Source: Laetmonice hystrix
Taxonomy: Eukaryota
NCBI GenBank assembly: GCA_965235115.1
Contig: OZ249436.1
Coordinates: 29,514,001-29,578,000 of the forward strand
Direction of reading: 5' to 3'
DNA: 64,000 bases
Program-made: the position numbers and the translations under genes
The notes under the pieces: generated by a model
What the model was told of the DNA's origin: nothing
The model's input: only the letters and a program-made list of their open reading frames with translations
The model's database searches: none
In this document: one piece after another, positions 3,116 through 45,658 of the stretch
Position numbering within the stretch: the first letter of the stretch is position 1
How the letters are laid out: each line of letters starts with the position of its first letter

Positions 3116-4790
3116 AATGTGACCCATGTCTCTAAGTTTTCTCCATAGGATTGTAACTGTGACCCATGTCTCCGAGTTCTCCCCAGGAGGGTTGTAACCG
3201 TGACCCATGTCCCCTAGTTCTCCCCAGGAGGGTTGTAACTGTGCCCATGTCCCCTAGTTCTCCCCCAGGAGGGTTGTAACTGTGACCCATGTCCCCGAGT
3301 TCTCTCCAGGAGGGTTGTAACTGTGACCCATGTCTCTAAGTTTTCCCCAGGAGGATTGTATCTGTGGCCCATGTCCCCAAGTTTTCTTTAGGAGGACGGA
3401 AACTGTGACCCATGTCCCCGAGTTCTCTCCAGGAGGGTTGTAACTGTGACCCATGTCCCCTAGTTCTCCCCAGGAGGGTTGTAACTGTGACCCATGTCCC
3501 CGAGTTCTCTCCAGGAGGGTTGTAACTGTGCCCATGTCCCCTAGTTCTCCCCCAGGAGGGTTGTAACTGTGACCCATGTCTCCGAGTTCTCCCCAGGAGG
3601 GTTGTAACCGTGACCCATGTCCCCGAGTTCTCCCCAGGAGGGTTGTAACTGTGCCCATGTCCCCTAGTTCTCCCCCAGGAGGGTTGTAACTGTGACCCAT
3701 GTCCCCGAGTTCTCTCCAGGAGGGTTGTAACTGTGACCCATGTCCCCGAGTTCTCCCCAGGAGGGTTGTAACTGTGCCCATGTCCCCTAGTTCTCCCCCA
3801 GCAGTGTTGTAACCGTGACCCATGTCCCCTAGTTCTCCCCCAGGAGGGTTGTAACTGTGACCCATGTCCCCAAGTTCTCTCCAGGAGGGTTGTAACTGTG
3901 ACCCATGTCTCTAAGTTTTCCCCAGGAGGATTGTATCTGTGGCCCATGTCCCCAAGTTTTCTTTAGGAGGACGGAAACTGTGACCCATGTCCCCGAGTTC
4001 TCTCCAGGAGGGTTGTAACCGTGACCCATGTCCCCTAGTTCTCCCCCAGGAGGGTTGTAACTGTGACCCATGTCTCCGAGTTCTCTCCAGGAGGGTTGTA
4101 ACTGTGCCCATGTCCCCTAGTTCTCCCCCAGGAGGGTTGTAACCGTGACCCATGTCTCCGAGTTCTCCCCAGGAGGGTTGTAACCGTGACCCATGTCCCC
4201 TAGTTCTCCCCCAGCAGTGTTGTAACCGTGACCCATGTCCCCTAGTTCTCCCCCAGCAGTGTTGTAACCGTGACCCATGTCCCCTAGTTCTCCCCAGGAG
4301 GGTTGTAACCGTGACCCATGTCTCCGAGTTCTCCCCAGGAGGGTTGTAACCGTGACCCATGTCCCCTAGTTCTCCCCCAGCAGTGTTGTAACCGTGACCC
4401 ATGTCCCCTAGTTCTCCCCAGGAGGGTTGTAACCGTGACCCATGTCTCCGAGTTCTCCCCAGGAGGGTTGTAACTGTGGCCCATGTCCCGGAGTTCTCTC
4501 TCTAGGCGGATTGAAACTGTGACCCATGTCCCTAAGTTCTCTCTATAGGCGGATTGAAACTGTGACCCATGTCCCTAAGTTCTCTCTATAGGCGGATTGA
4601 AACTGTGACCCATGTCCCTAAGTTCTCTCTCTAGGCGGATTGAAACTGTGACCCATGTCCCCAAGTTTTCTCTAGGATGGAAACTGTGGCCGATGTCCCT
4701 ACGTTTTCTCCAGGAGGATTGAAACCGTGGCCCATGCCCCTTAGTTCTCGCAAGGCGGATTGAAACTGTGACCCATGTCCCTTAGTTTCC
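3116..4790. repeat. Minisatellite, 40-42-bp unit (gtgacccatgtccccgagttctccccaggagggttgtaact), about 40 copies
   Basis: Direct tandem repetition with variant units; the 3' end shifts to a ...ctaggcggattgaaact variant. It explains the repetitive ORFs at 3254-4484. Confidence 0.97.
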
Positions 4791-5861
4791 CCCCGAAGGA
4801 CCTCCTCAGTGTTGGTGCATGACGTTCACTGCCGTGTCCGCAGCCAGCCATGGGGACAGAAAGCCATCGTTTAGATCATCCCGGGAAAAGAAGCCCATTA
4901 CCGGCCCGCCGTGTCTGGCTTATTTCGTGGGCCGCACACCCGCCAAATCCATTTCCGTGTAATTGAGTTTAAACAATGACAAAATTATGATAGAGTACCA
5001 TCATAAAGCGGTCATGAATGCCAAATCCACACGGCATTGATCCACGAAGTGATTCAAAAATTTCATTTGCATTAATTCCAGTACTTAAGAGAATCCGACA
5101 ACCTCGACAAGAAACCTGGCGACCAGCGTTGATGTGCGACGCGTGGTGAATCGTTGATGAGCTCCCCCTTACCCCCTCCCCCCTACCCCCGCCCGTTACC
5201 CCCACCAACTCCTCCCCACACTTCTGGGGGTAACCTCCAGCCAAACGCACTTACTCATCGCAGCGCCTCTAAAGAAAAACTACAAAAATCATATTAGTGA
5301 ATTATACTGAGGCTGTAACTAACCCAAGTACATACACCGTGGAATGGCCAAACATGGGCCCGGGTGTGTTTGTACGCAGGGCAGGATTGACTTGTCCAGA
5401 TTAGGACAAGAAATAAATTCATCCGCCTGCCGCAGGATAATCCATTTACAAGTGAAATCAATGTCGAGAGAGACGTAATTTGTGTCGCAGGGGGACGGGG
5501 CTGCGGGTCGTGACTCGGGTGCCTTAAACAGCCCTTAATCTAAATAGCCCTTATCACTCAAATCGAATTCGCATCTTTGCACGCATGGAATTCACAAGAA
5601 GATGTGTCTAGTTGCTTTCGACGCCCAGTTAATCCATCTATAGGCTGACCTCTCCCTCTGACCCGACTACAACCCTCTTAAACTTCACATCATGTAGGGG
5701 TGCCCTCCTGATATATCAAACAATAATTTCTGACTACAAGGCACCAAAGATAAAATGAATTGGCGGGGTGGAAGTAGAACTGTGCCCTCTCACACTGCCC
5801 GGGTTATTCGCGAATTTGTGCTTCGTAACGTTACCGCCACCCCCACCCCCACCCATTATAT

Positions 5862-7276
5862 ACGGACTCGGGGATAGCTTAAGTCCACTAGAGGTCTCAG
5901 GTATGCCATATAATATTAGGAGATTATAAGGATACGGACTCGGAGATAGCTTAGGTCCACTATAGGTCTCAGGTATGCCATATGAGGAGATTATAAGGAC
6001 GGACTTGGCGATAGCTTAGGTCCACTATAGGTCTCAGGTATGCCATATAAGGAGATTATAAGGATACGGACTCGGAAATAGCTTAGGTCCACTATAGGTC
6101 TCAGGTATATGCCATATGAGGAGATTATAAGGATAGGGACTCGGAGATAGCTTAGGTCCACTATAGGTCTCAGATATGCCATATGAGGAGATTATAAGGA
6201 TAGGGACTCGGAGATAGCTTAGGTCCACTATAGGTCTCAGGTATATGCCATATGAGGAGATTATAAGGATAGGGACTCGGAGATAGCTTAGGTCCACTAT
6301 AGGTCTCAGGTATGCCATGTGAGGAGATTATAAGGGTACGGACTCGGAGACAGCTTAGGTCCACTATAGGTCTCAGGTATGCCACGTGAGGAGATTATAA
6401 GGATACGGACTCGGAGATAGCTTAGGTCCACTATAGGTCTCAGATATGCCATATGAGGAGATTATAAGGATAGGGACTCGGAGATAGCTTAGGTCCACTA
6501 TAGGTCTCAGATATGCCATATGAGGAGATTATAAGGATAGGGACTCGGAGATAGCTTAGGTCCACTATAGGTCTCAGATATGCCATATGAGGAGATTATA
6601 AGGATACGGACTCGGAGATAGCTTAGGTCCACTATAGGTCTCAGATATGCCATATGAGGAGATTATAAGGATACGGACTCGGAGATAGCTTAGGTCCACT
6701 ATAGGTCTCAGATATGCCATATGAGGAGATTATAAGGATACGGACTCGGAGATAGCTTAGGTCCACTATAGGTCTCAGATATGCCATATGAGGAGATTAT
6801 AAGGATAGGGACTCGGAGATAGCTTAGGTCCACTATAGGTCTCAGATATGCCATATGAGGAGATTATAAGGATAGGGACTCGGAGATAGCTTAGGTCCAC
6901 TATAGGTCTCAGATATGCCATATGAGGAGATTATAAGGATACGGACTCGGAGATAGCTTAGGTCCACTATAGGTCTCAGATATGCCATATGAGGAGATTA
7001 TAAGGATAGGGACTCGGAGATAGCTTAGGTCCACTATAGGTCTCAGATATGCCATATGAGGAGATTATAAGGATACGGACTCGGAGATAGCTTAGGTCCA
7101 CTATAGGTCTCAGATATGCCATATGAGGAGATTATAAGGATACGGACTCGGAGATAGCTTAGGCCACTATAGGTCTCAGATATGCCATATGAGGAGATTA
7201 TAAGGATAGGGACTCGGAGATAGCTTAGGTCCACTATAGGTCTCAGATATGCCATATGAGGAGATTATAAGGATAC
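5862..7276. repeat. Minisatellite, 67-bp unit (gatacggactcggagatagcttaggtccactataggtctcagatatgccatatgaggagattataag), about 21 copies
   Basis: The 67-bp period can be read directly (e.g. 6401 to 6468); copies are highly homogeneous. Confidence 0.97.
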
Positions 7277-8695: not shown

Positions 8696-10485
8696 CGGTG
8701 TATAGATCTATGTCGCATTTTCTTTCAAATAAACTGGATAAACTGGTAGATATAAAGATTGGGCTGTTCGGTCCGTCATCTATAGATACAGTCAAGATGT
8801 ATATCAAAGAACGTCAGGCCGTGCCGCTTTCTGAGCGAACTGAAGACAGACAGAGAGACACAGAGACAGAGCAGTACCTTTGTGCTGCCACCTGGCGGTG
8901 GGGTTGTAAACCACACCAGCTGATGACAACAAAAGCGCCATCTTGCGAGACACTGAATAGACTGACATTCGGCCGTAAAAACGCAATGTGAACTCATATT
9001 TAGCTAATTTGACTTCTAATAATATACCATAATCGTAAATTCCCTGATGATATATCAAAATTATATTTTGTTTAGGCCTATTGTTTAATATCTGAATTTG
9101 ACCCATTGGGCCCCATGTTGCGGACCCCCAAATTACCCCAACTCATATAGGCCTAGTCATAGAGGTGGACTTACATAATTCTATTACATAATACATAAAT
9201 ATACTGGTCCTTAAAATGAAGTTTAAATATGTCTATGTCCGTGTCAAGTATGGCCTATTGGCTCCGTATGCATTACTAATTGGGCCTATGTGTGTGTTTG
9301 CGTGTTAAGGCATAGGTAGGCCTGACATTGTACACTTCCAGGATTATGTTAGAGGTTCAAATACTGAGGTTACACACAGAGACCTAGTTAAGAACGTAGA
9401 TTGCAAAATAATTGTTCGGCAGGTGTTTGATGTTGAGAAGTGCACGTGCATTAAGATAATATTTCTATCAATCTTAAAGGCACCGACTTTCTTCAACCAC
9501 TATATCTTGTCGCCAAAGTCTACGGCGGCCTCTAGTGACTACGAAGATGCATCGTTGTTCATCGATTTCTGTGTGTTGTTGAATATATCTTGCCTTGAAG
9601 TAGACCTTAACTGTGGTGAAACTTGCAATGCTGGGGGGAGGGGGGGGGGGGGAGGTCCTGCTGCCTCTTGAAGACAGACAACACACCCATTTCATAATAG
9701 TTGTCTAAGTATCCACTAGGTGGTTCATAATCATTTTCTGAATGAACTTTCCCCTGCATGCTACGGCGCTGATATCTGAACACGACACTTGTAATAAGAA
9801 CTAGATACGTTGTGGAGTACCACAATGGATCCCATCCCCGGGGTGTCCCATGTAACATGTTCTGAATAGGGATAACTATTGTACTATCTTGCACCCGTGA
9901 CGACTTATGAGCCTTAGAAGATGGAAGTTACGTCATTATGACCTTATGCTACGTCATAAATATTGATCTCAATGGACTTCCTATTCATGTTCAAAAATAA
10001 CTATAGGTGTATCTAGCACCGTTTACTAGTTACAGGCTTCTACCAATCCTTAGAAGGGCTCAGTTACGTCATAAGGATTTAATAGATAACACAACAGAAT
10101 AAATCTTGGTGTCAAATGAAAGAACATAATGAGGACTTCCTGTTTATATTCAATACTAACTATGCGTCTAACTCCTACCATTTACAAGTTAAAACCCTGA
10201 GAAAATATCGATGACATCGTTATGTCATGGGTCACGTGACCTAAGAAATAATGATGCCAAACGAAAGAGTATACATGACTTCCTATTCGTGTTCAATAGT
10301 AACTATGGGTCTAACTTCAAGCATTAACAAGTTATATCCCTTAGAAAATATCGATGACATCTTTACGACGTCACAGGTCACGTGACCTTAAGGATGACGA
10401 TACCAAGTGATAGCAAGTTATAGCCCTGACAAAATATAGGTTCACTGGCTGTGGTAATCAGTACCAGTTCAATCCAGTATTAGCT

Positions 10486-10563
10486 TGTCAGATGGCGTAG
10501 CACTGGCGATAAGTGTCTTGACTCACATGCTATGGGTCGTCGGTTCAATCCCAGGCCGAGTCA
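10486..10563 (+). pseudogene. tRNA-derived sequence or SINE-like head inside the outer DINE-like element
   Basis: A-box-like tggcgtagcactgg and B-box ggttcaatccc at tRNA spacing; the anticodon region (ctcacat) pairs poorly; the B-box segment is duplicated at about 10599-10620. Confidence 0.6.
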
Positions 10564-11329
10564 CCTATTTTTTTGGACTTCTACCGGAAGGGTCCCGCGT
10601 TCAATCCCAGGCCGAGTCACGTTTCTTTTTCTTTTTGTTTTTTCCCTCTAATTTTTAAAAATGGTCACGTGACCTGAAAAAAATATCATAAAAGAGCATA
10701 ATGACTTCTTATCTGTGTTTAATAGTAACCAATGCCAAATCTGGCACCGTTTACAAGTTCTAGAAAATTGTCAATTTTTCGAAATTTCAAAGTCACGTGA
10801 TTCAGCGAATATTAGTCAAATCGCTTATCTTTTGATGATTTGAGACAAGCTCATGTTAGAGAGTCCTTCTGCCTAATATTGTCGAATTTCACCAAAAAAT
10901 GAAGAAGGAGTAGCGATTTAAGAGATTTGTGACTGAGGACCCAGTTCTCCCAAAGTTCAAGGTCAAATGACAAATGAAGGGTTCATGTTAGACTAGACCC
11001 TTGCCTGATTAAAACGCCATGATGGGGTTTGGAAATTCCCAATATGAACGTCATGACGTGACGTCATACGTCACGTCACGTGATATGTCACAACTCATTG
11101 TCTGACCAGTCCTTGTCATGGTCAAGATGTGTGCCAAATTTGATTGAGATATCTTGAAAACTGACTGAGATAGACGCCACTGTTTACTACTACTACTACT
11201 ACTACTACTACGACGCAAAGAACTAGACCCGTTGCGGTGATAACCACAATGGATCCCATCCCCTTGGGGGTCCTGTCTACCATGTTCTGATTTAGTAGAG
11301 AGAGCTAAGGCTATTCAAAATGATGGTGT

Positions 11330-14130
11330 CAAATGAAAGAGCATATATTATATTGCTTCCTGTCAGTGTTAGTGTTTAATAGTAGGTATAGATCTAATTT
11401 CAACCATTTACAAGTTATAACCCTCAGAAAAATAAGAAAATATGGATGATGTCATTATGACCTGATAGGTCACGTGACGTGAAAAATAATGGTGCCAAAT
11501 GAAAGAGCGCATATGACTTCCTATTAGTGTTTAATAGTAACTATGGCTCTAACTTCCACCATTTACAGGTGATAGCCCTGAGAAAATATGGATAACATCA
11601 TTATGACGTCATAGGTCACGTGACCTGAAAAATAATAGTGTCAAATGAAAGAGCACATATTACTTCCTATTAGCGTTTAATAGTAACTATGGCTCTAACT
11701 TCAACCATTTACAAGTTATAGCCCTGAGAAAATATTATGGATGACATCATTAATGACGTCATAGGTCACGTGATGTAAAAAATAATGGTACGAAATAAAA
11801 GAGCATATATGACTTCCTATTAGTGTTTAATAGTGACTATGGCTCTAACTTGAACCATTTACAAGTTATAGCTCTGAGCAAATAAGGATGACATTATGAC
11901 GTCATAGGTCACGTGACCTAAAAATAATAGTGTCAAAGAAAAGAGCTTATATTATTTCCTATTAGTGCTTAATAGAAACTATGGCTCTAACTTCAACAAT
12001 TTTCGAGTCAGAACCCTGAGAAAATATTGATGACATCGTTATGACATCATAGGTCACGTGACCTGAAAAATAATGGTGCCAAATGAAAGAGCATATATGA
12101 CTTCCTATTCGTGTTCAATAGTAACTATGGCCCTATCTGGCACCGTTTAGAAGTTGTAGCCATAGATAGCTAAACTGGCCACTTTTGAAAATTTCAAGGT
12201 CACGTGATTCACGCGAATATAGGTCAAATCGTGTATCCCTGGATAATTCTATTAAAGCACTTGTTAGAGAGTGTTCCTGCCCAATATTGCCAAATTTTAC
12301 CAATAAATGATGAAGAAGTAGCGATTTAACCGATTTGTGACCTAGGACCCAGTTCTCCCTAAGGTCAAAGGTCAAAGGTCAAATGAAGGGTAACTTTTAG
12401 GCTAGACCCTTGCCTCATCATAAGGCCATGATAGATCTTGAAAATTCCAAATATGAACTTCAAAAATGGCCTTCAATGTCCCAAACACGTTTGACGTCAT
12501 GACGTCATGACGTGATGTCACGTGACGTCATGACTGATTGTGTGATCTGACTTTGTCATGGTCAAGCTGACTGCCAAATTTGATTGAGATATCTTGAAAA
12601 ATGACTGAGATAGAGGTACTGTTTACGACTACTACTACTACTACGCAAAAAATAACTAGACCCGTTGCGGTGATAACCACAATGGATCCCATCCCCTGGG
12701 GGGTCCTGTCTACCATGTTCTGATTTAATAGAGAATGCTATGGCTATTCAAAATGATGGTGTCAAATGAAAGAGCATCTGTTAGTGTTAGTGTTTAATAG
12801 TAGGTATAGCTCTAACATCAACCATTTACAAGTTATAGCCCTGAGAAAATAGTGATGACATCGTTATGACGTCATAAGTCACGTGACCTGAAAAATAATG
12901 GTAACAAATGAAAGAGCATATATGACTTCCTATTAGTGTTTATTAGTAACTATGACTCTAACTTCAACCATTTGCAATTTATAGCTATGAGAAAATATTG
13001 ATGACATTGTTATGATGTCATAGGTCACGTGACCTGAAAAGTAATGGTGCCAAGTGAAAGAACATATATGACTTCCTATTCGTCTTCAATAGTAACTATG
13101 ACTCTAACTTCAACCATTTACAAGTGATATCCCTAAGAAAATATGGATGACATCGTTATGACGTCATAGGTCACGTGCCCTAAAAAATAATGATGACAAA
13201 TGAAAGAGCATATATGACTTCCTATTAGTGTTTAATAGTAACTATGGCTCTAACTCCAACCATTTACAAGTTATAGCCCTGAGAAAATATGGATGACATC
13301 GTTATGATGTCATAGGTCACGTGACCTAAAAAATAATGGTGTCCAATAAAAGAACATATATGACTTCCTATTCGTGTTCAATAGTAACTATGGCCCTATA
13401 TGGCACTGTTTACAAGTTATAGCCCTGAGAAAATATGGATGACATTGTTATGACGTCATAGGTCACGTGGCCTGAAAAATAATGGTGTCAATTGAAAGAG
13501 CATATGACTTCCTATTAGTGTTTAATAGTAACTATGGCTCTAACTTCAACCATTTACAAGTTATAGCCCCGGGAAAATATGGATAAAATTGTGACGTCAT
13601 AGGTCACGTGACCTGAAAAATAATGGTGCCAAATGAAAGAGCATATATGACTTCCTATTAGTGTCTAATAGTAACTATGGCTCTAACTTCAACCATTTAC
13701 AAGTTATAGCCCTGAGAAAATATGGATGACATTCTTATGACATCACAGGTCACGTGACCTAAAATAATAACGGTGCCAAATGAAAGAGCATAATGACTTC
13801 CTATTCGTGTTTAATAGTAACTATGACGCTAACTTCAACCATTTACAAGTGATAGCCCTGAGAAAACATGGTTGACATCATTATGACGTCATAGGTCACG
13901 TGACCTGAAAAATAATGGTGTCAAGTGAAAGAGCATATATGACTTCCTATTAGTGTTTAATAGTAACTATGGCACTATCTTCAACCATTTACAAGTTATA
14001 GCCCTGGGAAATTATTGATGACATCGTTATGACGTCATAGGTCACGTGACCTGAAAAAAAAATGGTGCCAAATGAAAGAGCATTGACTTCCTATTCGTGT
14101 TCAATAGTAACTATGGCCCTATCTGGCACT
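11330..14130. repeat. Internal 146-bp tandem repeats of the DINE-like elements (about 5 copies in the middle element, about 9 in the inner one)
   Basis: ggtcacgtg recurs at 13023, 13169, 13315, 13461 (period 146); most units contain tgacgtca-taggtcacgtgacc or a near variant. Confidence 0.9.
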
Positions 14131-14621
14131 GTTTAGAAGTTGTAGCCATAGATAGCTAAACTGGCCACTTTTGCAAACTTCAAGGTCACGTGATTCAGCT
14201 AATATAGGTCAAATCGCTTATCCTTGGATGTTTCTATTAAAACACTTGTTAGAGAGTATTCCTGCCCAATATTGTCAAATTTTACCAATAAATGAAGAAG
14301 AAGTAGCGATTTAACCGATTTGTGACCTATGACCCAGTTCTCCCTAAGGTCAAAGATCAAAGGTCAAATGAAGGGTCAGTTCTAGGCTAGACCCTTGCCT
14401 GATCATAACGCCATGATAGATCTTGGAAATTCCCATTATGAACTTTAAAAATGGCCCTCAATGTTCCAAACACGTTTGACGTCATGACGTTATGACGTGA
14501 CGTCACGTGACCTCATGATTGATTGTGTGACCTGACTTTGTCATGGTCAAGACATGTGCTAAGTTTGATTGAGATATCTTGAAAAATGACTGAAATAGAG
14601 GTACTGTTTACGACTACTACA

Positions 14622-14658
<37 letters not shown>

Positions 14659-15172
14659 GTACGCCAAAAATAATAGGGAAGACGAAACCACACAATTTCT
14701 AGATCCCATCCCCTGGATAGGGGATGGGATAATAATAGGGAAGACGAAACCACACAATTTCTAGATCCCATCCCCTGGATAGGGGATGGGATAATAATAA
14801 TAGGGAAGACGAAACCGTACAATCTGAAGATCCCATCCCCCTGTAGGGGATGGGATAATAATCGGCGTGGCTAGTGGCTGGTACACCCGCGAGTTTTGTA
14901 GAGCGCGCACACATAGTTCGGTTGGCTGACGCTAGGGGTTGACGCTAGGGGTCTGGCCTGGGACGCTTTCTCTCGTACTACGCGTTTGCCGCCAGACGGC
15001 GAAATAGTCAATACCCTGAGACTGTTTACTCTGAACGTGAAACGATCCGCGCAAAGTGGCCCGAGTGAATGGCCGGTCTTCCGCCAAAACTCCCTTTTTT
15101 ATTATGTCAAATTTGGTTGGCCTAGTCAACGACGACTTGTTCGAATCTACGAGGCCACCATTTTATATAGAC

Positions 15173-16298
15173 ATATGTCGTGGCCCAGATCCCAATCTGG
15201 CCCAGTTGCCAATTGGTCCGGACCAGATGACAATTGGGATCTGGTCCGGCCCAGATACCAATTGGGATCTGGTCCGGACCAATTGGAAACTGGATCGGAC
15301 CAGATCACAATTGGGATCTGGGCTGGCCCAGATACCAATTGGGATCTGGTCCGGACCAATTGGAAACTGGACCGGACCACATCGCATCTGGGCTGGCCTG
15401 GATGCCAATTGGAATCTGGGCCGGACCAATTGGAAACTGAACCGGACCAGATCCCAATTGGCTGGGCTGGCCTGGATGCCAATCGAGGTTTTCAGTCATA
15501 GGATTGGGATCTGGTCTGGACCAGTTGGCAACTGGTCCAGGCGAAATAATGATTTCAATCTGGTCCAGCCCAGATCCCAATCCAATGACTCTTGGTCCAG
15601 ATCCAAATCCTGGTTCCTGGTATTTGTTCATTGTAACTATTTTCGTTGACAATGTGCTGTGTAGGAAAAAAAATAGTCCATGGGATAAAAGGAACATTTT
15701 TTCAAAAACATTTTCCTTGCCCTTTGAAGAGGGGGTTGCAATGCGATGGAGTGCTATTTAATTGGGTATTTTGTATTTATTTATTTTAACTAGGCCTATT
15801 TTCGTTTACAATGCCCTGTGTATTTGAAATAAAATACATACAATTATTTTACTAAATCCATGATGAAGAACCAGGATTTGGATCTGGACCAAGACTCATT
15901 ATTTGAAATCATTATTTCGCCTGGACCAGTTGCCAACTGGTCCGGACCAGATCCCAATCCTATGACTGAAAACCTCGATTGGCATCCAGGCCAGCCCAGA
16001 TGCCAATTGGGATCTGGTCCGGTCCAGTTTCCAATGGGTCCGGCCCAGATCCCAATTGGCATCCAGGCCAGCCCAGATGCCAATTGGGATCTGGTCCGGT
16101 CCAGTTTCCGATTGGTCCGGCCCAGATTCCAATTGGCATCCAGGCCAGCCCAGATCCCAATTGTGATCTGGTCCGGTCCAGTTTCCAATTGGTCTGGACC
16201 AGATCCCAATTGGTATCTGGGCCGGACCAGATCCCAATTGGGATCTGGTCCGGACCAATTGGCAACTGGGCCAGATTGGGATCTGGGCCACGACATAT
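15173..16298. mobile_element. Foldback/MITE with about 440-bp modular inverted arms and an AT-rich spacer
   Basis: atatgtcgtggcccagatcccaatctggcccagttgccaattggtccggaccag at 15173 is the reverse complement of the sequence ending at 16298; arms are about 15173-15620 and 15860-16298, built of short ggaccagatcccaattgg modules. TSD is ambiguous (TA or AC). Confidence 0.93.
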
Positions 16299-16678: not shown

Positions 16679-18160
16679 CTATAAGATAGGTTTCTGTGAT
16701 CTCAGTGTATCAAAGATACTGTCGCCCGTCAGTTCCTCCCTCATGAGTATGACGTCATGCAGGCCTGGCGGAAACGGCAGTTGCGCCACCTCGCGGCGAA
16801 TATTGTGGCTCAAATGACGTCGTATTTTGATGCGACATAATTCCATCAAAGATCGCGGCTGTCCTAGAAGGTCCATTAACCAGCGCACAAAGCATGGATC
16901 TCCTTGGAGACTAGGATGAAGCCAAGTAAAATTACCTCCATCCCCTCTCCACTGCCAAATGCTTTTTACATCAGCCCCGGCAGCAATAAGCACCAACGCA
17001 ATATCTTTGAAACCATCGTGAAGCGGGAACCAGAGAAGAGGCCGTTTGCAGTTTTGAAAAAAGAAACTCCCGTCTATTCTGCAGTTATAGGCTAGAAACA
17101 CCTTGACAACATTCAGTCTGTGCCCGCGGACAGCCGTCAAGAGGGGCGTTCCTCCGCGGAAGGTTGGTGCTTCAGCCGCAGCTGTCTGCCCTCTAAACAG
17201 CAACAAGTTTATGATATCGGCACAGCCATGTGCGGCAGCGACGTGAAAAACGTTCCTACCGTGCACGTCGACCTTGTCGACGTCACAGCCTGACTGTATG
17301 AGTAGCGTCATGACGTCACGGTAACGTCGTAGGAAACCCTTGGCGGCCGCCAGCAGCAGCGGAGTGTTTCCCGTGTTATCCTGGAGGTCCATGTTAGCTC
17401 CAGCCTCGAGCAACGCCAGCGTCGTGTCCACGTGACCACAACGTGCCGCGTGATGCAACGCCGTCTTCAAGAACTTGCCCGTCGCGTCGACGTCACAGCC
17501 GAACTGTATGAGCGACTCGACAATGTCTTTGTGGCCGCGTGCGCTGGCGACGATCAGTATTGGATCCGTTGTTCTGTTATGACTGGACACCGGGCTGCTT
17601 CGGAACAAGTGTTCAACGACGTCGTACGGCCTCCTGACAGTCGTCAGCAGACCTGCCGTGGGTTTTCTCTCTCTTAAATCACACTTGCCAGATTTCAACA
17701 AAACATTCACCACGTCGGTATGTCCCCGGGACACAGCCGAGAGTAGGGCTGTGTTTCCTTCGGAATTCTGTAGGTTCGCGTCGCCTCCTGCCCTGATGAT
17801 GCACGCCACCAACCCGGCGTGGCCCGTCGTCGATGCCATCATCAAAGGCGTCAACTGCATGTGATTTCGACTGTCTATTTCAGCTCCGTGGTAAATGAGA
17901 AGTCTAAAGATCTCCACCAGATTGTCGTCGTTGTGCTCCATGTCTGGGACGTTGACGCGGGTCTTGCCGGCCAGGATGTGTAAGGGGCTGTTGCCTTGCT
18001 CATCCTGACTGTTTGGGTCGACGCCGTACTTGAGTAGAGTTTTCACCTGATGAACATTGTTCAGAATGACGTGGCCAAAGAGAAGTTCCTCCAAACGGTT
18101 ACTGCCGGGGATACCTGAATTATAAACGAGGAGACTCAATGTACGGTTTGATATGAAAAT
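16679..18160 (-). CDS. Ankyrin repeat and SOCS box protein (ASB-type Cullin5/ElonginBC substrate adaptor), main and last coding exon
   Basis: Multiple ankyrin repeats (GNSPLHILA, LTPLMMAST, GNTALLSAV, KTALHHAAR, GNTPLLLAA, GRNVFHVAA, GGTPLLTAV) and a C-terminal SOCS box PRSLMELCRIKIRRHL...LPFPPGLHDVIL. The ORF-track start is a TTG; the frame extends to the acceptor tatttcttactgttttatag at 18160 (phase 0). Confidence 0.95.
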   Translation of the reverse strand: MFISNRTLSLLVYNSGIPGSNRLEELLFGHVILNNVHQVKTLLKYGVDPNSQDEQGNSPLHILAGKTRVNVPDMEHNDDNLVEIFRLLIYHGAEIDSRNHMQLTPLMMASTTGHAGLVACIIRAGGDANLQNSEGNTALLSAVSRGHTDVVNVLLKSGKCDLRERKPTAGLLTTVRRPYDVVEHLFRSSPVSSHNRTTDPILIVASARGHKDIVESLIQFGCDVDATGKFLKTALHHAARCGHVDTTLALLEAGANMDLQDNTGNTPLLLAAAKGFLRRYRDVMTLLIQSGCDVDKVDVHGRNVFHVAAAHGCADIINLLLFRGQTAAAEAPTFRGGTPLLTAVRGHRLNVVKVFLAYNCRIDGSFFFQNCKRPLLWFPLHDGFKDIALVLIAAGADVKSIWQWRGDGGNFTWLHPSLQGDPCFVRWLMDLLGQPRSLMELCRIKIRRHLSHNIRREVAQLPFPPGLHDVILMREELTGDSIFDTLRSQKPIL

Positions 18161-24904: not shown

Positions 24905-27860
24905 TGGCAGTTTGAGATTTTCATGACGACGACGACACTCGAAGGTGGCAGTTTGGGATTTTCATGACGACGACGACACTCGGAGCTGGAAGTATGAGAT
25001 TTTCATGACGACGACGACGACACTCGGAGCTGGCAGTTTGGGATTTTCATGACGACGACGACACTCGGAGCTGGCACTTTGGGATTTTCATGACGACGAC
25101 GACACTCGGAGCTGGCACTTTGAGATTTTCATGACGACGACGACACTCGGAGCTGGCACTTTGAGAATTTCATGACGACGACGACACTCGGAGGTGGCAG
25201 TCTGAGATTTTTATGACGACGACGACACTCGGAGCTGGCACTTTGAGATTTTCATGACGACGACGACACTCGGAGCTGGCAGTCTGAGATTTTCATGACG
25301 ACGACGACACTCGGAGCTGGAAGTTTGATATTTTCATGATGACGACGACACTCGGAGCTGGCACTTTGAGATTTGCATGACGACGACGACACTCGGAGGA
25401 GGCAGTATGAGATTTTCATGACGACGACGACACTCGGAGGTGGCAGTTTGAGATTTTCATGACGACGACGACACTCGGAGCTGGCAGTTTGGGATTTTCA
25501 TGACGACGACGACACTCGGAGCTGGCACTTTGAGATTTTCATGACGACGACGACACTCGGAGCTGGAAGTTTGATATTTTCATGACGACGACGACACTCG
25601 GAGCTGGCACTTTGAGATTTGCATGACGACGACGACACTCGGAGGAGGCAGTATGAGATTTTCATGACGACGACGACACTCGGAGCTGGCAGTATGAGAT
25701 TTTCATGACGACGACGACACTCGGAGCTGGCAGTATGAGATTTTCATGACGACGACGACACTCGGAGGTGGCAGTTTGAGATTTTCATGACGACGACGAC
25801 ACTCGGAGCTGGCACTTTGAGAATTTCATGACGACGACGACACTCGGAGGTGGCAGTCTGAGAATTTCATGACGACGACACTCGGAGCTGGCACTTTTGA
25901 GATTTGCATGACGACGACGACACCCGGAGGAGGCAGTATGAGATTTTCATGACGACGACGACACTCGGAGGTGGCAGTTTGAGATTTTCATGACGACGAC
26001 GACACTCGGAGCTGGCACTTTGAGAATTTCATGACGACGACGACACTCGGAGCTGGCAGTATGAGATTTTCATGACGACGACGACACTCGGAGCTGGCAG
26101 TATGAGATTTTCATGACGACGACGACACTCGGAGGTGGCAGTTTGAGATTTTCATGACGACGACGACACTCGGAGCTGGCACTTTGAGAATTTCATGACG
26201 ACGACGACACTCGGAGGTGGCAGTCTGAGAATTTCATGACGACGACGACACTCGGAGGTGGCAGTCTGAGAATTTCATGACGACGACGACACTCGGAGCT
26301 GGAAGTTTGATATTTTCATGACGACGACGACACTCGGAGCTGGCACTTTGAGATTTGCATGACGACGACGACACTCGGAGGAGGCAGTATGAGATTTTCA
26401 TGACGACGACGACACTCGGAGGTGGCAGTTTGAGATTTTCATGACGACGACGACACTCGGAGCTGGCACTTTGAGAATTTCATGACGACGACGACACTCG
26501 GAGGTGGCAGTCTGAGAATTTCATGACGACGACGACACTCGGAGGTGGCAGTCTGAGAATTTCATGACGACGACGACACTCGGAGCTGGCACTTTGAGAA
26601 TTTCATGACGACGACGACACTCGGAGGTGGCAGTATGAGATTTTTATGACGACGACGACACTCGGAGCAGGCACTTTGGGATTTACATGACGACGACGAC
26701 ACTCGGAGCTGGCAGTTTGAGATTTACATGACGACGACGACACTCGGAGGTGGCAGTTTGAGATTTTCATGACGACGACGACACTCGGAGCTGGCAGTCT
26801 GAGATTTTTTTATGACGACGACGACACTTGGAGCTGGAAGTTTGAGATTTTCATGACGACGACGACACTCGGAGCTGGCACTTTGAGATTTTCATGACGA
26901 CGACGACACTCGGAGCTGGCAGTATGAGATATTCATGACGACGACGACACTCGGAGCTGGCAGTATGAGATTTTCATGACGACGACGACACTCGGAGCTG
27001 GCAGTATGAGATTTTCATGACGACGACGACACTCGGAGGTGGCAGTATGAGATTTTCATGACGACGACGACACTCGGAGGTGGCAGTTTGAGATTTTCAT
27101 GACGACGACGACACTCGGAGCTGGCACTTTGAGAATTTCATGACGACGACGACACTCGGAGGTGGCAGTCTGAGAATTTCATGACGACGACGACACTCGG
27201 AGGTGGCAGTCTGAGAATTTCATGACGACGACGACACTCGGAGCTGGCACTTTGAGAATTTCATGACGACGACGACACTCGGAGGTGGCAGTCTGAGATT
27301 TTCATGACGACGACGACACTCGGAGCCGGCACTTTGGGATTTACATGACGACGACGACACTCGGAGCTGGCACTTTGAGATTTTCATGACGACGACGACA
27401 CTCGGAGCTGGCACTTTGAGATTTTCATGACGACGACACTCGGAGCTGGCAGTTTGAGATTTACATGACGACGACGACACTCGGAGCTGGCACTTTGAGA
27501 ATTTCATGACGACGACGACACTCGGAGCTGGCACTTTGAGAATTTCATGACGACGACGACACTCGGAGCTGGCAGTTTGAGATTTTCATGACGACGACGA
27601 CACTCGGAGCTGGCAGTTTGAGATTTACATGACGACGACGACACTCGGAGCTGGCATTTTGGGATTTTCATGACGACGACGACACTCGGAGCTGGCAGTC
27701 TGGGATTTTCATGACGACGACGACACTCGGAGCTGGCAGTTTGAGATTTTCACGACGACGACGACACTTGAAGGTGGCAGGTTGAGATTTTCATGACGAC
27801 GACGACAGTGGGAGCTGGGAGTCTGCCAGAAATACGACGACGACGACACTCAGAAGTAGG
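24905..27860 (+). repeat. 41-bp tandem array (gagattttcatgacgacgacgacactcggagctggcagttt), about 70 copies, left arm of the giant element
   Basis: Direct tandem repetition. Confidence 0.97.
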
Positions 27861-29996: not shown

Positions 29997-30452
29997 AAGT
30001 CGGTCAAAATGTAAAATTTGTTGTTTTTGGGGGTCGCATATCTCAATGCGCCCTCATCAGATTTGAATGAAACATTTTTTATCAGGCAGCCCTGTATGTC
30101 TACTAACTGTTATAAAGATTTTAGTGGTGTTCAGCTGACCATCGAAATGTGGTTAAGCTTACAAACACGAATTTGTGTTGATATCCAAGATGGCCGCCAA
30201 GCGGCCATTTTGAAGAATATAATTTATAAGCCCCCGTTGGGGGCTAAAAAGAGATGACTGTGCACAGTGTCACATACTTGTGGAATCATTGCCAGAAAAG
30301 CGTTAATACAGCTGAACCCCACTATAATCTTTCGACAGTTAGTAGAGACATACAGGGCTGCCTGATAAGAAATATTTCATTCAAATCTGATGAGGGCGCA
30401 TTGAGAAATGTGACCCCGAAAAACACGCAAAATTTTGCGTTTCGACCGACTT
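29997..30452. repeat. Inverted repeat with about 115-bp arms (29997-30110 and 30335-30452), probable DNA-transposon remnant
   Basis: tctcaatgcgccctcatcagatttgaatgaaa...atcaggcagccctgtatgtc and its reverse complement. Confidence 0.8.
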
Positions 30453-33400
30453 AACCCACAGGGGTGCTTATCCCAGAGCAGATGATGAAACCGGTTGACA
30501 ATGACAGGGCTGAAAGAACCCAAAATATAACTTTAACCAGTAGAGCTAACCTTAACCCAGAGCAGAGGGCGAAACCAGTTGAGAATGGCAGGGCTGCAAA
30601 AACCCAAAATGACTACTAACCCTATACCAAAACTTAACCTTAACCCATGGGGGACGCAACCCAGAGGAGAGACCGAGACTGGTCAGATGACAAGGCAGCA
30701 AATACCCACAAATATAACTAACCCTATCCCAAACCTTAACCTTAACCCACGGGGGTGCTTATTCCAGAGCAGAAGATGAAACCGGTTGACAATGACAGGG
30801 CTGAAATAACCCAAAATATAACTTTAACCAGTAGAGCTAACCTTAACCCTTAGGGTGCCTTAACCCAGAGCAGAGGTGAAACCAGTTGACAATGGCAGGG
30901 CTGCAAGAACCCAAAATGACTACTTGCCCTATCCAAAAACTTAACCTTAACCCATGAGGGACTCAACCAAGAGGACAGACCGATGCCAGATGAAAAGGCA
31001 GCTAGTACCGGTACCCACAAAATAACTAACCCTATCGGATCCTGAACGTTAACCTTAACCCTATCCCAAACCTTAACCTTAACCCACGGGGGTGCTTATC
31101 CCAGAGCAGAGGATGAAACCGGTTGACAATGACAGGGCTGCAAGAACCCAAAATATAACTAACCTTAACCAGAACCCTACCCTTAACCCTTAGGGCGCCT
31201 TAACCCAGAGCTGAGGGCAAAACCAGTTGGCAACGGCAGGGCTGCAAGAATCCAAAATGACTACTAACCCTATCCCAAAACTTAACCTTAACCCATGGGG
31301 GACTTAACCAAGAGGAGAGACCGAGACTGGTCAGATGACAAGGCAGCAAGTACCCACAATATAACTAACCCTATGCTGAACCTTAACCTTAACCCACAGG
31401 GGTGCTTATCCCAGAGCAGAAGATGAAACCGGTTGACAATGACAGGGCTGAAAGAACCCAAAATATAACTTTAACCAGTAGAGCTAGCCTTAACCCAGAG
31501 CAGAGGGCGAAACCAGTTGAGAATGGCAGGGCTGCAAAAACCCAAAATGACTACTAACCCTATACCAAAACTTAACCTTAACCCATGGGGGACGCAACCC
31601 AGAGGAAAGACCGAGACTGGTCAGATGACAAGGCAGTAAATACCCACAAATATAACTAACCCTATCCCAAACCTTAACCTTAACCCACGGGGGTGCTTAT
31701 TCCAGAGCAGAAGATGAAACCGGTTGACAATGACAGGGCTGAAATAACCCAAAATATAACTTTAACCAGTAGAGCTAACCTTAACCCTTAGGGTGCCTTA
31801 ACCCAGAGCAGAGGTGAAACCAGTTGACAATGGCAGGGCTGCAAGAACCCAAAATGACTACTTGCCCTAGATCCAAAAACTTAACCTTAACCCATGAGGG
31901 ACTCAACCAAGAGGACAGACCGATGCCAGATGAAAAGGCAGCTAGTACCGGTACCCACAAAATAACTAACCCTATCGGATCCTGAACGTTAACCTTAACC
32001 CTATCCCAAACCTTAACCTTAACCCACGGGGGTGCTTATCCCAGAGCAGAGGATGAAACCGGTTGACAATGACAGGGCTGCAAGAACCCAAAATATAACT
32101 AACCTTAACCAGAACCCTACCCTTAACCCTTAGGGCGCCTTAACCCAGAGCTGAGGGCAAAACCAGTTGGCAACGGCAGGGCTGCAAGAATCCAAAATGA
32201 CTACTAACCCTATCCCAAAACTTAACCTTAACCCATGGGGGACTTAACCAAGAGGAGAGACCGAGACTGGTCAGATGACAAGGCAGCAAGTACCCACAAT
32301 ATAACTAACCCTATGCTGAACCTTAACCCTAACCCACAGGGGTGCTTATTCCAGAGCAGAAGATGAAACCGGTTGACAATGACAGGGCTGAAAGAACCCA
32401 AAATATAACTTTAACCAGTAGAGCTAACCTTAACCCAGAGCAGAGGGCGAAACCAGTTGAGAATGGCAGGGCTGCAAAAACCCAAAATGACTACTAACCC
32501 TATACCAAAACTTAACCTTAACCCATGGGGGACGCAACCCAGAGGAGAGACCGAGACTGGTCAGATGACAAGGCAGCAAATACCCACAAATATAACTAAC
32601 CCTATCCCAAACCTTAACCTTAACCCACGGGGGTGCTTATTCCAGAGCAGAAGATGAAACCGGTTGACAATGACAGGGCTGAAATAACCCAAAATATAAC
32701 TTTAACCAGTAGAGCTAACCTTAACCCTTAGGGTGCCTTAACCCAGAGCAGAGGTGAAACCAGTTGACAATGGCAGGGCTGCAAGAACCCAAAATGACTA
32801 CTTGCCCTATCCAAAAACTTAACCTTAACCCATGAGGGACTCAACCAAGAGGACAGACCGATGCCAGATGAAAAGGCAGCTAGTACCGGTACCCACAAAA
32901 TAACTAACCCTATCGGATCCTGAACGTTAACCTTAACCCTATCCCAAACCTTAACCTTAACCCACGGGGGTGCTTATCCCAGAGCAGAGGATGAAACCGG
33001 TTGACAATGACAGGGCTGCAAGAACCCAAAATATAACTAACCTTAACCAGAACCCTACCCTTAACCCTTAGGGCGCCTTAACCCAGAGCTGAGGGCAAAA
33101 CCAGTTGGCAACGGCAGGGCTGCAAGAATCCAAAATGACTACTAACCCTATCCCAAAACTTAACCTTAACCCATGGGGGACTTAACCAAGAGGAGAGACC
33201 GAGACTGGTCAGATGACAAGGCAGCAAGTACCCACAATATAACTAACCCTATGCTGAACCTTAACCTTAACCCACAGGGGTGCTTATCCCAGAGCAGAAG
33301 ATGAAACCGGTTGACAATGACAGGGCTGAAAGAACCCAAAATATAACTTTAACCAGTAGAGCTAGCCTTAACCCAGAGCAGAGGGCGAAACCAGTTGAGA

Positions 33401-35048
33401 ATGGCAGGGCTGCAAAAACCCAAAATGACTACTAACCCTATACCAAAACTTAACCTTAACCCATGGGGGACGCAACCCAGAGGAAAGACCGAGACTGGTC
33501 AGATGACAAGGCAGTAAATACCCACAAATATAACTAACCCTATCCCAAACCTTAACCTTAACCCACGGGGGTGCTTATTCCAGAGCAGAAGATGAAACCG
33601 GTTGACAATGACAGGGCTGAAATAACCCAAAATATAACTTTAACCAGTAGAGCTAACCTTAACCCTTAGGGTGCCTTAACCCAGAGCAGAGGTGAAACCA
33701 GTTGACAATGGCAGGGCTGCAAGAACCCAAAATGACTACTTGCCCTAGATCCAAAAACTTAACCTTAACCCATGAGGGACTCAACCAAGAGGACAGACCG
33801 ATGCCAGATGAAAAGGCAGCTAGTACCGGTACCCACAAAATAACTAACCCTATCGGATCCTGAACGTTAACCTTAACCCTATCCCAAACCTTAACCTTAA
33901 CCCACGGGGGTGCTTATCCCAGAGCAGAGGATGAAACCGGTTGACAATGACAGGGCTGCAAGAACCCAAAATATAACTAACCTTAACCAGAACCCTACCC
34001 TTAACCCTTAGGGCGCCTTAACCCAGAGCTGAGGGCAAAACCAGTTGGCAACGGCAGGGCTGCAAGAATCCAAAATGACTACTAACCCTATCCCAAAACT
34101 TAACCTTAACCCATGGGGGACTTAACCAAGAGGAGAGACCGAGACTGGTCAGATGACAAGGCAGCAAGTACCCACAATATAACTAACCCTATGCTGAACC
34201 TTAACCCTAACCCACAGGGGTGCTTATTCCAGAGCAGAAGATGAAACCGGTTGACAATGACAGGGCTGAAAGAACCCAAAATATAACTTTAACCAGTAGA
34301 GCTAACCTTAACCCAGAGCAGAGGGCGAAACCAGTTGAGAATGGCAGGGCTGCAAAAACCCAAAATGACTACTAACCCTATACCAAAACTTAACCTTAAC
34401 CCATGGGGGACGCAACCCAGAGGAGAGACCGAGACTGGTCAGATGACAAGGCAGCAAATACCCACAAATATAACTAACCCTATCCCAAACCTTAACCTTA
34501 ACCCACGGGGGTGCTTATTCCAGAGCAGAAGATGAAACCGGTTGACAATGACAGGGCTGAAATAACCCAAAATATAACTTTAACCAGTAGAGCTAACCTT
34601 AACCCTTAGGGTGCCTTAACCCAGAGCAGAGGTGAAACCAGTTGACAATGGCAGGGCTGCAAGAACCCAAAATGACTACTTGCCCTATCCAAAAACTTAA
34701 CCTTAACCCATGAGGGACTCAACCAAGAGGACAGACCGATGCCAGACGAAAAGGCAGCTAGTACCGGTACCCACAATTATATACTAACCCTATCGGATCC
34801 TGAACGTTAACCTTAACCCTATCCCAAACCTTAACCTTAAGTTAACCCACGGGGGTGCTTATCCCAGAGCAGAGGATGAAACCGGTTGACAATGACAGGG
34901 CTGCAAGAACCCAAAATATAACTAACCTTAACCAGAACCCTACCCTTAACCCTTAGGGCGCCTTAACCAAGAGCTGAGGGCAAAACCAGTTGGCAACGGC
35001 AGGGCTGCAAGAATCCAAAATGACTACTAACCCTATCCCAAAACTTAA

Positions 35049-35381
35049 AGTGCAACTGACATCACATAGGTAACTTTACTGATCTAGATAGATCACTTTG
35101 AGTTGTAGCCGTATCCCTGATAGTTTTTCTGAGAAGTCCTCTCAATTTAGAAAAATATTGAAAATTCGAATCTCGCGCCTCATCACAGTCTCACTCCTGC
35201 CTATTCTTTACCATTGCCCCTGATGACGTCAGCAGGGGAATTGGTCTTTAAAACGGCTTACAATTACATACAGTTCATATTCTTGTACAATAACCGCTCC
35301 TTTAAGTTAAACAACAACAAATTACATGTATCATCAGGATCTGGCACTAAATTTCATGTAAATTTTGATGTCTGTTGGACT
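35049..35381. mobile_element. Kolobok-like MITE with TTAA TSD inserted into the satellite
   Basis: ttaa|agtgcaactgacatca ... tgatgtctgttggact|ttaa (14/16 TIR match); the satellite resumes in register. Confidence 0.85.
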
Positions 35382-36353
35382 TTAACCTTAACCCATGGGG
35401 GACTTAACCAAGAGGAGAGACCGAGACTGGTCAGATGACAAGGCAGCAAGTACCCACAATATAACTAACCCTATGCTGAACCTTAACCTTAACCCACAGG
35501 GGTGCTTATCCCAGAGCAGAAGATGAAACCGGTTGACAATGACAGGGCTGCAGGAACCCAAAATATAACTAACCTTAACCAGAACCCTAACCTTAACACT
35601 TAGGGCGCCTTAACCCAGAGCAGAGGGCGAAACCAGTTGACAATGGCAGGGCTGCAAGAACCCAAAATGACTACTTGCCCTATCCAAAAACTTAACCTTA
35701 ACCCATGGGGGACGCAACCCAGAGGAGAGACTGAGACTGGTCAGATGACAAGGCAGCAAATACCCACAATTAATATAACTAACCCTATCCTGAACCTTAA
35801 CCTTAACCCACGGGGGTGCTTATCCCAGAGCAGAGGCTGAAACCGGTTGACAATGACAGGGCTGCAAGAACCCAAAATATAACCTTAACCAGAACCCTAC
35901 CCTTAACCCACAGGGCGCCTTAACCCAGAGCTGAGGGCAAAACCAGTTGGCAACGGCAGGGCTGCAAGAATCCAAAATGACTACTAACTCTATCCTAACT
36001 AACTAACTGGGTGCCAGTGAGTAGCAGAATGACTGACGCTGACGCCACAAGCTCACCTCTACTAGTTTAATAGATTTATATCAGAACTGACGCCGACGCC
36101 ATCAGCCCACCTCCCCTTGTGTATAGTTGTAGACTAGAACTGACGCTGACGCCATGTGGATTTATCCCTGCCTGGGTGCCAGTGAGTAGCAGAATGACTG
36201 ACGCCGACGCCACAAGCTCACCTCTCCTAGTTTATAGATTTATATCAGAACTGACGCCATCGGGTCATTCCATATTGATGAACTCAACCAGAGGTCCCAT
36301 GGCCACCGATTCAGATTTGGCTCCAACAAATTGTGGGAGTACCTTTACTTATA

Positions 36354-36713
36354 TCGGGTGGATAAAAAAAAACGCCCCGAATTTTAAACTTCAATATTTC
36401 AAAAAGTAATGATTGTAATTCAATTAAATTTTTCTTCATATCACTTCATGATGTTCTCTCTTAGTTGTTAATGTTACAAGTAAATAGCTTGGATAATATT
36501 TCCGTGGGGCTAAAAACAAAAATCATCGTACAAAAGCGCAATGCCGTGCTAAAGCAAAGTGTAGTTGCACCTAGAGTGCCTGGCCTTACACTCGAGTAGG
36601 TGGTCAATTGGTCCCCCGTTTTCACTTCATACTGCTCTCAGTCTCTTTTTCCATGAGCCAATGCACTTCCTGATCTCTGATAGGGAAATATCTTCCCAAC
36701 ATTGGGAAATTAT
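36354..36713 (-). mobile_element. 3' end of a Tc1/mariner element (TIR plus transposase C-terminal remnant)
   Basis: TA|tcgggtggataaaaaaaaacgcccc TIR followed by a minus-strand transposase-like peptide. Confidence 0.8.
36591..36713 (-). pseudogene. Tc1/mariner transposase C-terminal fragment with in-frame stop
   Basis: Manual translation IISQCWEDISLSEIRKCIGSWKKRLRAV*SENGGPIDHLLE fits the W..I....I...I.SW..RL.AV....GG...H tail of Tc1/mariner transposases. Confidence 0.8.
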
Positions 36714-37842
36714 ATGCAACGTTTTGAATGTGTTGCTAAACGTGATAATGATACGATTTCCCTTGATGAAACCGGTTGACAAAGACAGGGCTGCAAGAAC
36801 CCAAAATATAACTAACCTTAACCAGAACCCTACCCTTAACCCTTAGGGCGCCTTAACCCAGAGCAGAGGGCGAAACCAGTTGAGAATGGCAGGGCTGCAA
36901 AAACCCAAAATGACTACTAACCCATTACCAAAACTTAACCTTAACCCATGGGGGACGCAACCCAGAGGAGCTAGACTGAGACTGGTCGGATGACAAGGCA
37001 GCAAATACCCACAATTATAACTAACCCTATCCCAAACCTTAACCTTAACCCACGGGGGTGCTTATTCCAGAGCAGAAGATGAAACCGGTTGACAATGACA
37101 GGGCTGAAAGAACCCAAGATATAACTTTAACCAGTAGAGCTAACCTTAACCCTTAGGGTGCCTTAACCCACAGCAGAGGGCGAAACCAGTTGACAATGGC
37201 AGGGCTGCAAGAACCCAAAATGACTACTTGCCCTATCCAAAAACTTAACCTTAACCCATGGGGGACTCAACCCAGAGGACAGACCGATGCCAGGTGAAAA
37301 GGCAGCTAGTACCCACAATTAACTAACCCTATCCTGAACCTTAACCTTAACCCACAGGGATGCTTATCCCAGAGCAGAGGATGAAACCGGTTGACAATGA
37401 CAGGGCTGCAAGAACCCAAAATATAACCTTAAAGTTAAAGGGATGGAAAACCCACACGGCAAATTAGGTTTCGTAGACCAAATAAAACACCAGCATTTAC
37501 CTCAGGGCAATAAATGCCACAATTACGTTGTCTGAATGAAGTAATTTTACGTGTAACCGCCCGATGTGTGACGCCGCTGGTTCTGACCTTGACCTACTGG
37601 TGTGTTCATCACCTCGGACGTTTACAAACGTTTACAAAGACTGGGACTCCAAACATCGTGTAGACAAGGTCTGTGAGCAGAGCGTAATGTTACACATTTA
37701 TGCCGTGGTGTCTGCATTCAGCTGTGATGAACACACAAGTAAATAAAGTCCTAATTTCATATAAAACCGTATTATTGTAAAGCGCTGAGCACTGCTCAAA
37801 AACCTCCAGCCTAGGCTACTGGTCGGGTGTCTGGGGCTGGAA

Positions 37843-45050: not shown

Positions 45051-45658
45051 TGCTCACAAAATTTCGTGGGAAGTTACCATGGGGAAATAACCGTTTTTTG
45101 GTCATCGTCTCAGACTCATGCTTATCTCATCTCATGCCATGGTGAGTCTCGGTGGAGATCAAATCGGGGTTTTTTAGTTGAGATTGAGCTTTGGTTCAGT
45201 TGAGAAATCGTCTCAGTCGTCTCACTGGCCGAAAATGGAACAATCGTGACGACACAATGGGTGCAACAATCACCAGTCCATTGTGACGTAACAAAGGTAA
45301 CGAGCGATGCTAGCGCTTGCAGCGCTCCCTGCGGATTTTTCATGTCAGCTTTTTCTGGGTATGAACCCCAAAGGCTTAGAACCAGGGCGAGTCAAATGGG
45401 GGCACTTTACCGCCCTGTTCACGTTGTCACCGGACAACATTTGGCGGTACATCTCGACCAAGAGCACGGTCCACAACCACCAGGACGGTAGGACCGTAGG
45501 CCTACCCTCTCCTAATTTTGGCCGACTTTGACAATCATAAGGTGGCTTCCGACAGCATGCAGTTGGTAGGCCTATCGTAGCTGATTCGACTAGGCCTAAA
45601 CGAATCGGGAAAGTTGACCAAATCAACACGAACTATGTCGTGATTATTCGGCGATCCT

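Follow-up and report, generated by a model that had tools for sequence, protein, structure and literature searches.

The 64-kb window (the whole stretch of DNA that was analysed) holds, at positions 9799-14861, three related units followed by three hairpin blocks of 62-65 bp (Table 1). A reading made from the sequence alone had described the order head1-body1-head2-body2-head3-body3-tail-tail-tail, and this order is present. The units it distinguished stand; their polarity had to be refined: the "tails" correspond to 5′ hairpin blocks and the "heads" to 3′ ends, and the canonical orientation is that of the minus strand. The likenesses and differences that it had noticed are borne out by alignment. 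Of the 114 positions aligned between heads 2 and 3, 108 agree, with only one difference across the first 47 nt, and head 1 matches the other heads at 73 and 74 positions out of 106 (~69%); the first two tails are identical at all 62 positions, and of 61 positions the last tail shares 54 with them. In their distal parts, the bodies show 91.6% likeness between 2 and 3 and 79.9% between body 1 and either of these, so the divergent type is common to the outer 5′ block, the outer body and the outer 3′ block. A 12-nt motif, GATCCCATCCCC, occurs exactly six times in the window, three times in heads and three times in tails, and no further copy of the family was found within the 64 kb outside the stack.

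Table 1. Features of the three-element stack (E1-E3) and of its surroundings, in window coordinates. Element boundaries assume an A^TT cut (the caret marks the cut) and may shift by at most 2 nt within TT.
Feature	Position	Strand	Remarks
E1	9801..14861	-	outermost and most divergent; 1486 bp without inner elements
E1 5′ block	14798..14861	-	divergent "tail"
E1 5′ hairpin	14830..14856	-	subTIR and inverted repeat, 11-bp stem
E1 body and 3′ end	9801..11222	-	
E1 (TAG)n	11185..11211		
E1 degenerate central repeats	9960..10763		4 anchored monomers, split by an unrelated ~200 bp segment
Segment within E1 body	10440..10650		
E1 3′ block ("head 1")	9801..9839	-	divergent; subTIR 9828-9839, hairpin 9810-9825, CTAG
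E2	11223..14797	-	inside E1; 1495 bp
E2 5′ block	14736..14797	-	
E2 5′ hairpin	14765..14792	-	12-bp stem
E2 body and 3′ end	11223..12655	-	
E2 (TAG)n	~12624..12643		
E2 central 146-bp tandem repeats	11369..12178	not assigned	5.5 copies
E2 3′ block ("head 2")	11223..11263	-	subTIR 11252-11263, hairpin, CTAG
E3	12656..14735	-	innermost, uninterrupted, inside E2; 2080 bp
E3 5′ hairpin	14703..14730	-	12-bp stem
E3 target tract	14665..14675	-	intact, unoccupied; 11-nt spacer starting TATTATT, 28-31 nt behind the inner hairpin arm
E3 (TAG)n	14609..14662	-	18 units
E3 central 146-bp tandem repeats	12750..14121	not assigned	9.5 copies with seven same-strand ATTATT look-alikes, none of them occupied
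E3 3′ block ("head 3")	12656..12696	-	subTIR 12685-12696, short hairpin, terminal CTAG then TT
Foldback/MITE-like palindrome	15173..16298		300 bp from the stack
493-aa frame	16679..18160	-	
Array of 41-bp unit, first	24905..27822		71 copies
Array of the same 41-bp unit, second	43285..45055		~31+ copies
Array of ~100-104-bp unit	30450..37430		
Homogeneous 41-bp array	3118..4792		41 copies
Homogeneous 67-bp array	5860..7276		21 copies

What kind of elements are these? Read on the minus strand, a unit consists of TTATT, a subTIR, a loop, an inverted repeat, a short spacer, (TAG)n, a unique part, 146-bp repeats, a second subTIR, a small hairpin and CTAG. The DINE/Helentron-like assignment of the sequence-only reading agrees with this anatomy, which is that of HINE/DINE-1-like elements in all three copies. 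The 5′ subTIR (11-15 bp in this class) is ATCCCATCCCC and begins 5 nt inside all three 5′ ends, in hairpins with 11-12 bp stems (-14.3 kcal/mol with DNA parameters); the (TAG)n microsatellite is accompanied by central 146-bp arrays, degenerate in E1, whose monomers carry ATTATTTT sites; the 3′ subTIR, placed ~38-60 nt from the 3′ end in the class, starts 39-41 nt from it; and the 3′ palindromes are hairpins of 6-7 bp. TT flanks all three ends, as in TT or T-rich insertion without target-site duplication, and removal of E2 or E3 restores an 11-nt spacer, as expected without such a duplication. The high copy number typical of the class is reflected in a summed element depth that is, as a rough figure, ~800-8,800 times the single-locus depth. 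Published HINE/DINE-1-like elements, as far as the accessible parts of their descriptions go (PMC4067079; Cg_HINE, PMC7492417), share the 5′ subTIR with a nearby inverted repeat, the microsatellite, the central tandem repeats (138-181 bp in Cg_HINE, PMC7492417), the 3′ subTIR ~40 nt from the end, the 3′ palindrome, the lack of coding capacity and the T-rich target without duplication. The canonical Helitron (HLE1) has a 5′ TC start and no subTIRs, whereas the present elements start TT(ATT) and carry subTIRs; their 3′ ends (a hairpin, 5 nt and CTAG in all three) are like the hairpin and CTRR of canonical Helitrons, and like proto-Helentron, but unlike HINE/DINE-1-like elements. The three are non-autonomous, non-coding Helentron-type (HINE/DINE-1-like) elements and thus belong to a known element type. 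Pfam scans of 4 of the 13 long window frames revealed no RepHel partner, and the 64-kb window contains no empty-site paralogue; the flanks of the stack match nothing else in it.

Two other descriptions of the ends were tried and set aside. A 5-nt target-site duplication fits E3, but the same mismatch in E1 and E2 disfavours it. The 5′ block might also be a degenerate copy of a whole 3′ end; however, once the 12-mer is set aside, what follows the inner hairpin arm resembles the true 3′ end no better than shuffles do (p ~0.72). The ~200 bp segment within the E1 body contains a 41-bp partial duplication and a T-run, as well as motifs that we take to be like the A-box and B-box of Pol III promoters; it is possibly a tRNA-derived SINE fragment. 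ARAGORN and Rfam, run on the element with this tRNA-like insert included, found nothing.

In what order did the three elements come together? At the inner edge of the 5′ block of E3, which serves as the intact reference, TTCCC is separated from GCG by 11 nt. The occupied sites retain, on the 5′ side, spacers of 10 and 7 nt and, on the 3′ side, spacers of 6 and 9 nt. Under nested pairing, 10+6 and 7+9 both give 16, or 11 each once the element's own 5 terminal letters are subtracted; the swapped pairing gives 14 and 8. The equality of the sums is independent of where the cut is placed within TT and, because the spacer regains its intact 11 nt at both sites only if the ends are paired as nested, a last-in-first-out order is supported. 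The insertions lie 64 nt (into E1) and 62 nt (into E2) from the resident 5′ end, 3 nt apart, an offset that suggests two separate events. The single internal site just after the microsatellite, postulated by the earlier reading, is therefore nearly but not exactly right: the place is shared, the base is not, and the junctions fall ~10 nt beyond (TAC)n, within a TATTATT tract. Between bodies there are differences of 8-20%, and their repeat numbers are unequal; the mean identity between monomers of one array increases inward, from 66.5% in E1 through 79.5% in E2 to 85.3% in E3 (6, 15 and 36 pairs, respectively). The nesting of the three elements is well supported; E3 may have entered E2 at this locus, or E2 and E3 may have arrived as one unit, and both histories fit. 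One observation fits less well: E2 and E3 have an identical 62-nt 5′ block, yet their bodies are 8.4% apart. The probability of such identity is 0.004 if the blocks diverge like the bodies and 0.035 if they diverge like the heads; conserved termini, or conversion between neighbours, may be the reason.

Further copies of the family were sought in public contigs from three runs (X1-X3) of one sample, possibly the source of the assembly, which were compared with positions 14450-15100 at 80% likeness. This 651-nt stretch was matched by 983-1,508 contigs per run, whose depth is not equivalent to copy number. The right flank (14893-15035) is present in the sample as two alleles, differing by 7 substitutions and a 13-nt deletion, with a summed depth of 41-88; element depth sums to at least 10^5, and a rough estimate puts the family copies in the thousands. 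Eight of the longest 24 of 3,975 pieces span stacked 5′ blocks, a share favoured by the longest-first choice; they represent four distinct sequences with 11-15 substitutions, of which three have at least 31 letters on both sides, and one piece continues 2.3 kb into unlike DNA. A stacked-junction variant with an extra ATA has depths of 8,492, 9,477 and 7,203 in the three runs, i.e. 108-206 times the single-locus depth, a ratio that overlapping contigs may inflate. In an X2 and X3 contig that lacks the target tract, a body with three of three body-1 diagnostic letters (judged by eye) runs into a tail of the divergent type; the linkage of the divergent tail to type 1 elsewhere in the genome, which the sequence-only reading called for, was thus seen once. 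Together with the junction spacers and the differences between bodies, this linkage supports its preference for serial nesting over a rolling-circle tandem array. Family copies also include several deletion derivatives (window 14490-14820), in which the body is joined directly to a 5′ block or hairpin, and in some copies the target tract holds (CTA)n(CAA)n(AAT)n runs. When metagenomes were searched for the 5′ hairpin, 14 loci were returned, none of them like the element beyond the hairpin itself; judging by their sequences, they look like bacterial terminators or palindromes. Scans of viral and prokaryotic genomes for the 5′ block gave 0 matches.

If Helentron-type elements are so numerous, how often would one be expected to land in the same tract of another by chance? 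All three target sites, the host site of E1 included, read A^TT(A/C)TT, a string found at 135 of the 2,753 ATT sites of the window. The E1 host site has no subTIR nearby and, because it shares the cut-site letters without the motif, a sequence preference exists in any case. With 3,000-17,000 copies in a 500 Mb genome (a proxy from contig letters), a TT- or ATT-only model leads one to expect 0.3-13 double stacks and <0.01 triples genome-wide, and a strict ATT[AC]TT preference, which was fitted post hoc to these three sites, 6-206 doubles and 0.01-1.7 triples. Given that elements are hit, the probability that both hits fall in the tract is 0.0003-0.0006 under the TT or ATT models; under the strict motif the joint p is 0.095. 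Measured against the published TT rule, a hot spot has good support; factors beyond local sequence may or may not contribute to it, and a recurrent self-target of the family is likely. The family-wide preference for a site ~60 bp from its own end, as first proposed from the sequence, is likewise likely, in that stacked 5′ blocks recur, though amplification of chimeras could also produce such recurrence and a plain sequence preference may be at work. The safe harbour that the same reading thought possible would be a matter of fitness. On balance, the stack probably consists of three Helentron-type elements nested in the same orientation, likely via two separate A^TT insertions inside a resident 5′ hairpin, at a site predicted to be favoured by a borrowed RepHel transposase.

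How might such a transposase find its way to the 5′ hairpin of a relative? Helraiser (HLE1), according to the available portions of two reports, forms circles with precise right-to-left end junctions, is cleaved at the junction and inserts into AT targets, and its 3′ hairpin terminator can be bypassed (PMC4778049, PMC5876387). If Helraiser biochemistry can be transferred from HLE1 to HLE2, a copy would be peeled off from the 5′ end, circularised and pasted without target duplication, and the circle junction would here read subTIR, 27-29 nt, CTAG^TTATT. The 12-nt 3′ subTIR recurs letter for letter, and in the same direction, as the inner arm of the 5′ hairpin. The resident site presents the 12-nt motif, in the same direction, then 28 or 31 nt, then A^TT(A/C)TT; the true 3′ subTIR lies 27-29 nt from the real end. 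The resident copy would accordingly resemble an end junction, such that the transposase would bind the inner arm and treat the tract as the junction; motif, spacing and cut-site letters are the only features that the resident site and the true end share. Whether binding of the inner arm and reading of the tract as a junction explain the position and orientation of the insertions is, in our analysis, about evenly balanced. Since the element starts TTATT, its insertion would bring a new site and rebuild the old one; rebuilt old sites are visible at 14731-14737 and 14793-14802. Because insertion rebuilds the old site, stacks are predicted to keep growing, with branched bracket patterns. End-guided targeting is plausible; the full proposal, in which the transposase recognises its own subterminal repeat on the target, pastes ~30 nt downstream in a fixed orientation and so builds self-growing, order-recording stacks, is a tentative one that we would put slightly below an even balance.

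Could the locus have arisen without any nesting? The 62-bp 5′ block might have been duplicated by slippage or unequal exchange, with the body and 3′ units duplicated separately or as a rolling-circle array; two of the 5′ blocks lie in tandem without a single difference, and tandem Helitron arrays are known from the accessible part of the Cg_HINE work (PMC7492417). This is very improbable, however, given bodies that are 80-92% alike and unequal in repeat number, junction offsets of 7+9 and 10+6 nt that are exactly complementary, and divergent parts that are both outermost; moreover, in a rolling-circle array 5′ and 3′ ends would alternate. An assembly artefact at a repeat would be in keeping with the lack of any piece spanning the whole stack among the 24 listed contigs and with the low depth at 14868-14889, which, like the zero depth over the microsatellite, was not counted as evidence; but units that differ by 8-20%, exact junction arithmetic and like junctions in independent short contigs make it hardly credible.

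The remaining alternatives accept that nesting occurred and differ from end-guided targeting in what they make of the site or of the counts. The site could be chosen by sequence alone, whether A^TT(A/C)TT or (ATT)n, with thousands of tract-bearing copies hitting themselves and the subTIR irrelevant: the three sites share their letters even where, as at the host site, no subTIR is present, the strict model predicts its many doubles, and some family copies have longer (AAT)n runs at the target place. Yet E2 offered seven matching sites, five of them within same-strand monomers, and the terminal site was used. Furthermore, one junction variant already amounts to 108-206 locus-equivalents, whereas body depth suggests fewer than ~9,000 copies, for which the model gives fewer than ~70. 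We consider choice by sequence alone possible, if unlikely. Alternatively, a few founder nestings may have been amplified, the outer 5′ end being copied together with everything up to the first 3′ end to yield mobile chimeras with several 5′ ends; should this be so, the many stacked junctions overstate the number of self-insertions. Chellapan et al. 2016 proposed such a history, in which an element inserts into its own kind near the 5′ end and copying then runs as far as the first 3′ end, for Fusarium FoHeli Helitron2 copies with repeated 5′ ends of 31-85 nt at several loci, and the same paper, in the portion at hand, suggests that a 5′ end at a Metarhizium locus may have received two insertions (PMC5148889); HelenXT233, too, is described with two left termini as a direct repeat in the part of its report that is available (PMC11417382). 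The contig comparison leaves room for this model, as it omits the rows at 14605-14668, where body/head junctions lie, and hence gives no 3′-end counts at other loci. Against it, a locus with exact sums and as many 3′ ends as 5′ blocks, three of each, needs two insertions at the tract, in whatever order, and the other stacked sequences differ from one another and from the window. Founder amplification likewise strikes us as a doubtful, though serious, explanation.

Inserting beside a copy of one's own end, as end-guided targeting would have it, has its closest mechanistic analogy in the IR-targeting of IS30 and IS911, which insert beside their own terminal repeat in strict orientation; as far as the source consulted in part describes them, these are DDE transposases that insert at the tips of ends, whereas here an HUH rolling-circle enzyme is presumed to act ~30 nt behind an internal copy of the repeat (PMC9333248). 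Among rolling-circle elements the nearest precedent is FoHeli, with same-orientation short 5′ end repeats and self-insertion near the 5′ end; according to the accessible text, its repeat lengths vary, its copies have a single 3′ terminus each and a nested precursor was deduced (PMC5148889). The present stack, by contrast, is a full, balanced nest with base-exact junctions and sites 3 nt apart, in an animal-type genome. Multiple termini also occur in HelenXT233 and in maize Helitrons, where Dong et al. 2011 ascribed multiple 3′ termini to nesting and re-transposition; the maize elements are HLE1, and no fixed self-target site is described for either in the sections available (PMC3288121, PMC11417382). 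The accessible descriptions of HINE/DINE-1-like elements contain no insertion of copy into copy at a fixed internal site (PMC4067079, PMC7492417), and the parts of two further papers that were at hand contain nothing on self-targeting (PMC13085455, PMC12001565). A literature search that covered mainly open-access papers turned up no account of balanced self-nesting at a fixed site for the HINEs of animals. The stack is a clean animal example with a published fungal Helitron2 precedent, not a new kind of element.

The target choice of Helentrons (HLE2) has so far been known only as a preference for TT or T-rich sequence, and a fixed self-target with base-exact junctions offers a direct genomic test of whether a subterminal repeat steers integration. 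The FoHeli model of multiple 5′ termini requires a nested precursor, and the stack provides one that is intact; the bracket order of the stack is a relative clock by which subfamilies can be dated; and there is an annotation risk, as such stacks will be mis-called as satellites or as single long elements.

The surroundings of the stack are rich in repeats. The foldback/MITE-like palindrome beside it has 219-nt arms (94% complementary) and repeats of 28, 49 and 77 bp. Next to the palindrome lies an uninterrupted frame, the longest of the window, in which Pfam finds ankyrin repeats and a SOCS box (ASB-like). Farther along, two arrays of one 41-bp unit, 88% alike and in opposite orientation, are possibly the central repeats of another mobile family. 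The array of ~100-104-bp units contains TAACCC-like motifs and has a higher-order period of ~940 bp, and the two tandem arrays upstream of the stack, one of 41-bp and one of 67-bp units, are homogeneous.
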